IMG/VR virus record: IMGVR_UViG_3300000357_000189
DNA: 5,087 bases
Reading direction: 5' to 3' (one strand)
Source of the DNA: a virus
Taxonomy: Duplodnaviria > Heunggongvirae > Uroviricota > Caudoviricetes
The position numbers and the translations under genes were made by a program. Of this stretch, positions 1-5,087 are shown piece by piece. Position 1 is the stretch's first letter, and every line of letters begins with the position of its first letter. Under the pieces are notes generated by a model, which made no database searches, was not told the DNA's origin, and worked only from the letters and a program-made list of their open reading frames with translations.

Positions 1-350
1 TGGTGGAGCAGAACAGGCACACGGGCTTATTGCTGGGGGAAGTGAAACAGGAGGCCAGCGTATCGCAGTATGGAAGATTAGCGCACTGGAGGCTTAATCA
101 CCCTCACTGGTCACTGCATGACATCCGGCGCACCTTTACAACCATGCTGAACGATTTAGGCGTTGATCCGCATGTCGTGGAGCAGCTTACAGGCCACCAG
201 ATGCCAGGAATGCAGCGAGTTTATAATCATTCCCGTTATCTGGATGCGAAACGCAATGCGCTGGATATGTGGACNNNNNNNNNNNNNNNNNNNNNNNNNN
301 NNNNNNNNNNNNNNNNNNNNNNNNNNNNNNNNNNNNNNNNNNNNNNNNNN
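1..350 (+). CDS. int: Tyrosine recombinase (integrase), C-terminal fragment; 5' end lies upstream of the window and the stop codon is hidden in N-run 275-406, so the end coordinate is approximate
   Basis: Frame-3 translation of 3-274 reads ...HDIRRTFTTMLNDLGVDPHVVEQLTGHQMPGMQRVYNHSRYLDAKRNALDMW. HDIRR (His-x-x-Arg), LTGH and the Tyr in RVYNHSRY match the box II catalytic motifs of tyrosine recombinases. The post-gap continuation in the ORF track (TRSQKKIIFF...) looks non-coding. Confidence 0.85.
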
Positions 351-446
351 NNNNNNNNNNNNNNNNNNNNNNNNNNNNNNNNNNNNNNNNNNNNNNNNNN
401 NNNNNNTACCCGTAGCCAGAAGAAAATAATTTTTTTCGTGTTTTTT

Positions 447-484: not shown

Positions 485-522
485 GCAACAATGAGCAACA
501 ATGTGGAACAACTACGAACAAG
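485..522 (+). repeat. Four direct repeats with an AACAA core at exact 10-bp phasing
   Basis: AACAA occurs at 487-491, 497-501, 507-511 and 517-521 within gcAACAAtg / agcAACAAtg / tggAACAAct / acgAACAAga. Helical-turn spacing is typical of arm-type or iteron-like recombinase/regulator binding sites. Confidence 0.35.
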
Positions 523-794
523 AGGCGAAAAAGCGTACGGATTTATAAGTAGCTGATTTTTAATGTGTTACTGGTTTTTTGTACACTAGCGAATCACTCT
601 TTAAAGAGCGAGAAAAAAGGCATGGAACAATATTTTATGCCTTTGTATTAACGTGAATTTAAAAGATTTTATTCTTACTGTTTCATTTTCTGTAAATCAT
701 ACATCCTCAGTATTTGCCATTCATCACTCTAGCGGGAACAATACGACACAATAAGACACCTGATGACTCTTTAAGAAACGAAAGGGGGGCAATA

Positions 795-1040: not shown

Positions 1041-1212
1041 ATGAAGATTGAATATACGCCANNNNNNNNNNNNNNNNNNNNNNNNNNNNNNNNNNNNNNN
1101 NNNNNNNNNNNNNNNNNNNNNNNNNNNNNNNNNNNNNNNNNNNNNNNNNNNNNNNNNNNCGTTCGCCCTGGTGAAACTGAAAAACAACAAAATTGGGGTT
1201 TTTCAGGTATAA
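1041..1212 (+). CDS. Possible small hypothetical ORF (about 56 aa) spanning N-run 1062-1159; low confidence
   Basis: ATG at 1041 (MKIEYTP...) runs into the gap. After the gap a different frame reads ...[16 protein letters not shown] with stop TAA 1210-1212, immediately before the hairpin at 1218-1238. The SD is weak (GAG at 1030-1032). Continuity depends on a frame change across the N-run, which is seen at other gaps in this window. Confidence 0.2.
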
Positions 1213-1244
1213 AAAAAGCGGCCCCGAACTGGAGCCGCCTTTCT
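1211..1244 (-). terminator. Intrinsic (rho-independent) terminator for the leftward transcript; possibly weakly bidirectional
   Basis: Stem GCGGC(c)CC / GG(a)GCCGC (1218-1225 with 1231-1238) around loop GAACT (1226-1230). The A7 run 1211-1217 gives a U7 tract directly after the hairpin on the minus strand. On the + strand the hairpin is followed by CTTTCT (1239-1244). It lies about 90 nt downstream of the minus-strand stop at 1334-1336. Confidence 0.55.
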
Positions 1245-1333
1245 GAACAGATAACCCGCTGCGCCGTTTGTGTGTGTGATCCCAAACATAAGCACGGGGA
1301 TGATAGCCGTTATCAGGCTGGTGGGCAATGCAA

Positions 1334-1507
1334 TCAGTCTGGTTCAGTTCGTTGCCATACCTGCAATGAGCGCTTTTCCCTGTACTCTTTAAGGAATTGC
1401 TCAAGGGCAAAAGCACATGGCGCGAATCTTTCTGATTCATGCTCTATCTTTCTGCGCCGTCTTTTCCGTGCCGGTGATAATGTTTTGGTCAATTCTTTAT
1501 CGGTCAT
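1334..1507 (-). CDS. Small basic hypothetical protein, 57 aa from ATG 1507 (alternative start ATG 1522 gives 62 aa)
   Basis: Minus-strand translation [63 protein letters not shown] (complement of 1515-1518) sits 7 nt upstream of ATG 1507; the upstream ATG 1522 has no SD. It lies 57 nt downstream of the RHH gene and upstream of the terminator. Family not recognised. Confidence 0.55.
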
Positions 1508-1564
1508 TGTGTTGTCCTGCATAGCAATGCGCCGTAATACCTTACACCACGGCGCTGATGGTGA

Positions 1565-1744
1565 TTACTCTGGTTCTTTGGCCTTGCGCCGCTGGCGATA
1601 TTCAACTTCTCGTTTTAATGCCGCAGTAACAAATTGCCCCGTACTTTCGCCAGGCATTTTTACCGCCTCAACATTGTTCATAACTTCATGCGGAACCCTT
1701 GCCGCAACGGTTTGTGATTTTGCGTTTACCGCTTTTGTCGCCAT
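1565..1744 (-). CDS. Ribbon-helix-helix (Arc/MetJ/CopG-like) putative transcriptional repressor, 59 aa
   Basis: Minus-strand ORF below the ORF-track size cutoff: ATG at 1744-1742, stop TAA at 1567-1565. Translation [59 protein letters not shown]. The layout beta-strand ([10 protein letters not shown]), helix A (MNNVEAVK), G-x-S/T turn (PGEST) and helix B ([14 protein letters not shown]) fits an RHH fold. SD GAGGGG sits 8 nt upstream of the ATG. It is transcribed divergently from the palindrome-bearing promoter region. Confidence 0.65.
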
Positions 1745-3650: not shown

Positions 3651-4035
3651 ATGAAACTTAAATATTCTGGCTTAACTGCCAGTGGCAACACTCACCCTAA
3701 ATTTACGCGCGGCGATATTTACCGCGACCAGTACGGCGGCACGGTAATGATTAAGGGCGTGGAAGAACGGCGCGTAACCTACCGCCGTGAAGGTTACGAA
3801 TATGATTGCGTGATGCCTGTTTATCAGTTCCGGCGTGATTTTTCTCTGGTACAGACCGCGCCGCATAACGTGTCCACCAGCAACGCCAGGGCACGGGCAA
3901 ACATCCAGAAGCTGAAAACCATGATTAACGGANNNNNNNNNNNNNNNNNNNNNNNNNNNNNNNNNNNNNNNNNNNNNNNNNNNNNNNNNNNNNNNNNNNN
4001 NNNNNNNNNNNNNNNNNNNNNNNNGTAAAAAATGA
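3651..4035 (+). CDS. Hypothetical protein (about 125 aa); 3' end within or just after N-run 3933-4024
   Basis: ATG 3651 follows SD GGAG (3637-3640): MKLKYSGLTASGNTHPKFTRGDIYRDQYGGTVMIKGVEERRVTYRREGYEYDCVMPVYQFRRDFSLVQTAPHNVSTSNARARANIQKLKTMING... After the gap, either TAA 4026-4028 or TGA 4033-4035 is the stop; the latter overlaps ATG 4032 as ATGA, like other junctions in this operon. Confidence 0.55.
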
Positions 4036-5087
4036 AACTGGCACCGAACGTAAAACAGCAGTCACGCGGCATAAAACACAAAGAAACAGAAGTCATTATT
4101 TTTGCGGGTAGTGATGCCTGGTCACACGCAAAACAATGGCAGGAACATGACGCGCGTATGGCCGGAGATAATGAGCCTCCTGTGTGGCTTGGGGAGCAGC
4201 AGTTATCCGAACTGGATAAGCTGCAAATTGTGCCNNNNNNNNNNNNNNNNNNNNNNNNNNNNNNNNNNNNNNNNNNNNNNNNNNNNNNNNNNNNNNNNNN
4301 NNNNNNNNNNNNNNNNNNNNNNNNNNNNNNNNCGCATATTCAGGGCCGGATATCTTGCGCCAGTAATGATAAAGGCGATTGGTCAGAAGCTGGCGGCAGC
4401 AGGCGTACAGGATGCAAATTTTTACCCTGATGGTATGCACGGTCAGAAGGTGGAGAACTGGCGCGAATATCTGGCCCGTGAGCGCCAGAATCTTTCTGAT
4501 GGTCTGGTCATTGAGCTTCCGGTAAAGCAAAAGGCGCAACTTTCGCAGATGGCGGANNNNNNNNNNNNNNNNNNNNNNNNNNNNNNNNNNNNNNNNNNNN
4601 NNNNNNNNNNNNNNNNNNNNNNNNNNNNNNNNNNNNNNNNNNNGCGCGCAGCTGCTTGCCGATCGCTTTGATGGCGTTTGCGTACATCCTGAAAGTGAAA
4701 TCGTTCACGTATGGCGCGGCGGGGTATGGTGTCCGGTCAGCACAATGGAACTTAGCCGCGAAATGGTGGCGATCTATTCAGAGCACAGGGCCACTTTCAG
4801 CAAGCGCGTAATCAATAACGCCGTGGAAGCGTTAAAAGTTATTGCCGAACCAATGGGCGAGCCGTCCGGCGATTTGTTGCCGTTCGNNNNNNNNNNNNNN
4901 NNNNNNNNNNNNNNNNNNNNNNNNNNNNNNNNNNNNNNNNNNNNNNNNNNNNNNNNNNNNNNNNNNNNNNNNATGGTGCGCTTGACCTGAAAACGGGGGA
5001 ATTTTCCCCGCACACGCCGGAGAACTGGATCACCACGCACAACGGCATTGAGTACACGCCACCAGCACCAGGGGAGAACATCCGCGA
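4032..5087 (+). CDS. Primase/helicase-type replication protein (P4-family primase / D5_N-like region), 3' end outside window; interrupted by N-runs 4235-4332, 4557-4643 and 4887-4972. The first segment (4032-4234) could be a separate upstream ORF.
   Basis: Coding-looking segments in successive frames: MKLAPNVKQQSRGIKHKETEVIIFAGSDAWSHAKQWQEHDARMAGDNEPPVWLGEQQLSELDKLQIV (4032-4234); ...YLAPVMIKAIGQKLAAAGVQDANFYPDGMHGQKVENWREYLARERQNLSDGLVIELPVKQKAQLSQMA (4333-4556); AQLLADRFDGVCVHPESEIVHVWRGGVWCPVSTMELSREMVAIYSEHRATFSKRVINNAVEALKVIAEPMGEPSGDLLPF (4646-4886); GALDLKTGEFSPHTPENWITTHNGIEYTPPAPGENIR (4975-5085). LADRF...W..W and G.LDL.TGE..PH.PE motifs are, from memory, characteristic of the D5_N / P4-type primase C-terminal region. 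Confidence 0.6.

Follow-up and report, generated by a model that had tools for sequence, protein, structure and literature searches.

Frame changes in a phage-satellite replication gene are made by N-runs that very probably stand as placeholders of the wrong length in a single intact pri-rep

The window analysed here is a stretch of viral DNA of 5,087 nt (IMG/VR record IMGVR_UViG_3300000357_000189), in the last part of which, from position 4032 to 5087, a replication gene reads in a different frame in each unmasked segment. We conclude with high confidence that the N-runs interrupting this part are placeholders that do not preserve length, and that 4032-5087 represents codons 1-272 of one intact pri-rep gene. 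Judged by its sequence, the gene is the pri-rep of a Gram-negative phage-inducible chromosomal island (PICI) of the EcCICFT073 type, that is, of a kind that is already known and experimentally characterised. The frame pattern hence does exist in the window as it stands, yet its source is the N-runs rather than the gene.

The window contains ten N-runs, three of which fall inside 4032-5087 (Table 1). Upon three-frame translation, every unmasked segment of this part offers one stop-free frame, with 1-6 stops in each of the remaining frames, and both the coordinates and the order of frames (3, 1, 2, 1) in the original prediction turned out to be correct. That the segments are genuine coding sequence follows from their 100% identity to a CDS that is annotated and intact. 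The path from frame 3 to 1, 2 and back to 1 arises because the three N-runs exceed the sequence they replace by 79, 79 and 83 nt, which corresponds to +1, +1 and +2 modulo 3. The frame changes that had likewise been reported across the N-runs of the smaller genes are also borne out, as the excess is not a multiple of three in six of the seven upstream N-runs and only the run at 1062-1159 (excess 81) preserves the frame.

The true lengths beneath the N-runs can be read from close relatives. A megablast search with 4025-5087 against complete E. coli genomes returned a match in 1165 of 5426 genomes, the best matches being 100% identical, and the 1063-nt query spans just 822 nt in those records. 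In E. coli EcPF5 (NZ_CP054236.1; locus L001, whose coordinates are used below), all 11 unmasked segments of the window (3,993 nt) map once, exactly, colinearly and with 100% identity. The ten N-runs, the first of which lies at 275-406, comprise, in order, 132, 98, 20, 94, 93, 94, 92, 98, 87 and 86 N, and their equivalents in EcPF5 measure 47, 17, 25, 9, 8, 6, 7, 19, 8 and 3 nt. The excess is thus nearly constant, at 79-88 nt, in nine of the ten runs, the one exception being the run at 2003-2022, which is shorter than its equivalent (20 N for 25 nt, a difference of -5).

For the three N-runs within pri-rep, the same spacings were found throughout the relatives (41 fetched ones plus EcPF5), counted where the sequence on either side gave an end-to-end alignment. 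The 19-nt spacing is present in 42 of 42 relatives (26/26 viral or genomic loci and 16/16 metagenome contigs), the 8-nt spacing in 30 of 30 (19/19 and 11/11) and the 3-nt spacing in 27 of 27 (16/16 and 11/11). The suggestion in the original prediction that the N-runs differ in length from the sequence they stand for is therefore correct, with 98, 87 and 86 N standing for 19, 8 and 3 nt in a 100% identical genome as well as in the relatives. N-runs were seen in none of the 25 loci matched by an exact 43-mer in viral contigs and in none of the 16 in metagenome contigs. The exact 43-mer had no match in genome contigs, and a pattern spanning the 98-N run had none in metagenome contigs or genome contigs. 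From the identical relatives we infer the bases beneath the window's own N-runs. An over-estimated scaffold gap would be the most plausible cause of the excess, and arbitrary padding would fit as well.

Table 1. Position of pri-rep, its unmasked segments, N-runs and upstream neighbour in the window, and domains and matches of the encoded protein (Pri-Rep).
Feature	Window position	Strand	Residues of Pri-Rep	Remarks
DUF4222 gene, upstream neighbour	3651..4035	+		Contains N-run 3933-4024 (stands for 7 nt)
pri-rep, 5' 46% (codons 1-272 of 584)	4032..5087	+		Three N-runs; runs off the window end; 100% identity to WP_000761836.1
pri-rep codons 1 to 68 (second base)	4032..4234	+		Window frame 3; ATG at 4032 is the annotated start
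N-run, 98 N for 19 nt GGAAGGCAGAAAATCCGTG	4235..4332	.	P68-R75	Excess 79, apparent frame +1
pri-rep codons 75-149	4333..4556	+		Window frame 1
N-run, 87 N for 8 nt CAGTGAGC	4557..4643	.		Excess 79, apparent frame +1
pri-rep codons 152-233	4644..4886	+		Window frame 2 (stop-free stretch scored 4646-4886)
N-run, 86 N for 3 nt (CCA)	4887..4972	.		Excess 83, apparent frame +2
pri-rep codons 234-272	4973..5087	+		Window frame 1 (stop-free stretch scored 4975-5087)
N-terminal alpha/beta domain (predicted)	4083..4500	+	~18-130	Without Pfam family; spans first N-run; modelled fold weakly Toprim-like
D5_N (PF08706)	4646..5087	+	153-282	58.7 bits, E = 1.1e-15 on full protein; window cuts at aa 272
DUF5906 (PF19263)	beyond window		316-417	Pfam, 40.4 bits; P-loop core of D5/SF3 helicases
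Pox_D5 (PF03288)	beyond window		487-576	Pfam
TIGR01613 'phage/plasmid primase, P4 family'			229-495	NCBIfam, 109.1 bits against a cutoff of 108.7
PDB 7ola ('DNA primase' chain)			194-432	Match to chain residues 404-639, E = 3.8e-15
PDB 1ka8 ('putative P4-specific DNA primase' fragment)			488-579	E = 7e-07

The corresponding CDS of EcPF5, WP_000761836.1 ('DNA primase family protein'), is intact with 1755 nt and 584 aa, and its start is the ATG at position 4032 of the window, which encodes aa 1-68, 75-149, 152-233 and 234-272 of this protein. The upstream DUF4222 gene ends with a TGA at 4033-4035, so that its stop and the pri-rep ATG at 4032-4034 overlap in the sequence ATGA. A complete 584-aa ORF also exists in CFT073 and in 24 other fetched loci, and seven further fetched loci (L004, L010, L011, L015, L017, L019 and L034) carry a 604-aa variant. 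Among the fetched loci, truncated copies are confined to two short contigs, L016 (131 aa) and L035 (282 aa). Public data do hold copies that are truly frameshifted or truncated (proteins P0024, P0038, P0072 and P0082; loci L016 and L035), mostly on low-coverage contigs, and the sequence of the window's copy gives no sign that it is one of the broken ones. Programmed frameshifting was considered as well and rejected, since the unmasked ORF is continuous.

One of the readings put forward in the original prediction was that of a real pseudogene, with the frameshifting indels hidden beneath the N-runs. The frames indeed differ between the segments, and broken copies of the gene occur in public data. 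However, the unmasked bases of pri-rep contain neither a stop nor an indel that is not divisible by three, the flanking sequence matches an intact gene with 100% identity, and the length of the N-runs minus the true length of the gaps fully accounts for the frame path. In addition, six other genes show the same apparent shift, at all but one of the seven upstream N-runs, so that nearly every gene of the island would have to be broken exactly at its N-runs. As EcPF5, CFT073 and the 24 other complete copies all have an uninterrupted unmasked ORF of 584 aa, we regard a pseudogene as very improbable.

We would give even less credit to the idea that the N-runs are length-preserving masks over real insertions of ~80-88 nt unique to this copy. 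The uniform excess in nine of the ten runs could in principle represent one repeated inserted element, yet this would take nine near-identical insertions in 5 kb, all within coding sequence, in an element that is otherwise 100% identical to insertion-free copies. Wherever the flanks aligned, no insertion was present at any of the three N-run sites of pri-rep among the 42 relatives, and the run of 20 N is shorter than the 25 nt it replaces. The chance that 4032-4234 forms a small gene of its own ahead of the replication gene, as had also been proposed, appears similarly negligible. This segment opens with an ATG and is set apart by an N-run and a change of frame, but its codons specify aa 1-68 of Pri-Rep itself. 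The ORF of the unmasked relative is free of stops from codon 1 to 584, the predicted N-terminal domain draws its strands from both sides of the N-run, and phrog_864 aligns with aa 3-581 as one protein. From our point of view, the N-runs are thus best regarded as placeholders of the wrong length within a single intact gene, and frame, spacing or length arguments that reach across them are invalid, both for pri-rep and for the six upstream genes, as these N-runs are no ruler.

With the full protein at hand, the domain make-up of Pri-Rep can be described beyond the end of the window. Profile searches agree with the earlier mention of D5_N-like motifs, since PF08706 matches aa 153-282 and TIGR01613 is matched as well. 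The helicase that had been expected just beyond the window is found there in the form of an SF3 P-loop domain at aa 316-417, the window ending at aa 272, and its P-loop, GDGGSGKST (aa 317-325), begins about 45 codons past the window end. Based on these matches, Pri-Rep combines D5_N with an SF3 P-loop helicase core of the P4-alpha/D5 type, only the D5_N part of which lies inside the window. The fragment in PDB 1ka8, which we take to be the winged-helix origin-binding domain of P4 alpha, matches the C-terminal end of the protein, as does Pox_D5, and points to a P4-alpha-like origin-binding domain of the winged-helix type, again outside the window.

The N-terminal part is of a different nature. 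Searched on its own with Pfam at E-values up to 10, aa 1-160 gave no match, and an AlphaFold model of aa 1-184 reaches a pLDDT of ~90 over aa 1-130, where it predicts one alpha/beta domain whose strands come from either side of the first N-run. The 604-aa variant (L004 4265-6079) is 97.7% identical to the 584-aa form over aa 1-130, and beyond this part the identity drops to 33.8% for D5_N, 53.9% for the helicase region and 33.0% for the C-terminal domain. On sequence grounds this indicates a modular exchange, and the variant probably has a different origin specificity. The same N-terminal domain precedes, in the proteins P0054 and P0059, a C-terminus for which an AAA_25 (PF13481) hit is precomputed, occurs in P0055 under the source name 'helicase RepA family', and is followed by yet another, different C-terminal sequence in P0012 and P0033. 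One could speculate that the domain is not a primase but a module that is exchanged on its own and has a conserved partner, serving for example in the recruitment of the host primase or replisome or in the response to the helper phage. We consider this reading a tentative and rather unlikely one; if it were true, the 'primase' label of the Pri-Rep proteins of Gram-negative PICIs would be a misnomer.

A candidate origin is located 3' of pri-rep. In EcPF5, the pri-rep stop is followed by an intergenic region of 288 nt (L001 7763-8050), and the motif YTVTCTACC has nine exact sites in the 12.8-kb locus, all of them at L001 7776-8003. The expected number is 0.27, and nine sites were not reached in any of 200 shuffles; degenerate copies, at least two in number, exist besides. 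These iterons point both ways and surround an AT-rich stretch whose GC content is 0.37 (L001 about 7700-7899). This region of iterons and AT-richness starts 14 nt past the pri-rep stop, so that the check for iterons and AT-richness supports the prediction of an origin beyond the window, but places it about 0.95 kb past the window end and not immediately beyond. It is 97% identical to the ori region of EcCICFT073, and the EcCICFT073-type layout, in which an AT-rich stretch between two sets of iterons lies immediately 3' of the gene, is present in L001.

The surroundings of the gene in EcPF5 and CFT073 bear on the identity of the island. In EcPF5, the island has a size of ~11.4 kb (L001 1419-12816), lies inside tqsA and contains int, an alpA-like HTH gene, icd-like genes, small ORFs, DUF4222, pri-rep, ssb, a lambda-E-like capsid gene and a lambda-D-like decoration gene. 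The order in CFT073 (L028) is as in EcPF5, namely int, alpA-like, icd-like, DUF4222, primase, ssb, capsid E-like and decoration D-like. We place EcCICFT073 at 1.378-1.389 Mb of the CFT073 chromosome (L028 17930-28654); the region at 1.395-1.440 Mb was rejected as its site, as a lambdoid prophage is found there. EcCICFT073 has been described as carrying a capsid gene (c1499), a head decoration gene (c1500), pri-rep and a 3' origin with iterons and an AT-rich region, the latter being flanked by two iteron sets 3' of rep (Fillol-Salom et al., 2018, ISME J, PMC6092414). Its pri-rep-ori segment drives plasmid replication, and both its helper-phage-dependent induction and its autonomous replication have been demonstrated (PMC6092414). 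Gram-negative PICIs of this type are recognised by unidirectional transcription in the order int, alpA-like, further genes, pri-rep, ori and packaging or interference genes (PMC6092414), and the annotation of both L001 and CFT073 L028 follows this unidirectional layout.

Compared with the EcPF5 copy, the Pri-Rep of EcCICFT073 (WP_000761835.1) is identical at 581 of 584 aa (99.5%). The two differ by three substitutions, all of them C-terminal and outside the window, and every residue that the window encodes is identical. The islands themselves occupy different sites, that of EcPF5 being inside tqsA, which is split, and EcCICFT073 between roxA and phoQ; the two island integrases carry different accessions.

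The similarity to the better-known satellite P4 is more limited. Residues 324-762 of P4 alpha (777 aa; primase, helicase and origin binding) are 40% identical to aa 141-579 of Pri-Rep, which cover D5_N, the SF3 helicase and the C-terminal region. In contrast, the N-terminal region of ~320 aa ahead of the aligned part of P4 alpha gives way in Pri-Rep to an unrelated domain of ~130 aa, without detectable sequence similarity between the two. In both systems the gene is closely followed by short iterons that occur in either orientation, but the iteron sequences differ, with crr type-1 TGTTCACC repeats in P4 and YTVTCTACC in the island. The chain in PDB 7ola/7om0 (797 aa), presumably the PriRep of a staphylococcal pathogenicity island (SaPI), is detectably similar to Pri-Rep only in the helicase core, i.e. 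the D5_N/SF3 part, while the N-terminal domains differ.

By analogy with EcCICFT073 Pri-Rep and P4 alpha, we infer how the origin might fire. The helper phage would first induce the island, whereupon the C-terminal domain of Pri-Rep would bind the iterons just 3' of its own stop codon. Pri-Rep would then open up the AT-rich stretch next to them and load itself, serving as a replicative helicase of the hexameric SF3 kind.

Several other features of the window deserve mention. The palindromic 11-mer GTGTTYAACAC occurs three times at 1795-1846, with 0.11 matches expected in the whole window. The copies are intergenic, between a leftward gene of the YlcI/YnfO family (1565-1744, minus strand) and a rightward, intact icd-like gene (1944-2139), and look like putative operator sites of a divergent promoter region. 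This icd-like gene is the second of its kind, the other being an icd-like pseudogene at 1041-1569 (plus strand) that lacks its C-terminus according to RefSeq and lies next to the convergent YlcI/YnfO-family gene. Tandem repeats of 10 nt are found in the intergenic region from int to the alpA-like gene (430-794), with 2.7 copies of GCAACAATGA at 485-511 and 2.2 copies of ACAATAAGAC at 738-759, and these could be candidate arm-type integrase sites or regulator sites. A scan of the window and L001 with Rfam found no family at the gathering score, such as a C4-type antisense RNA.

Overall, there is nothing surprising about the locus in biological terms. It represents a further copy of a well-studied phage satellite replicon of E. 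coli, which finds a match in about a fifth of the complete genomes of this species.
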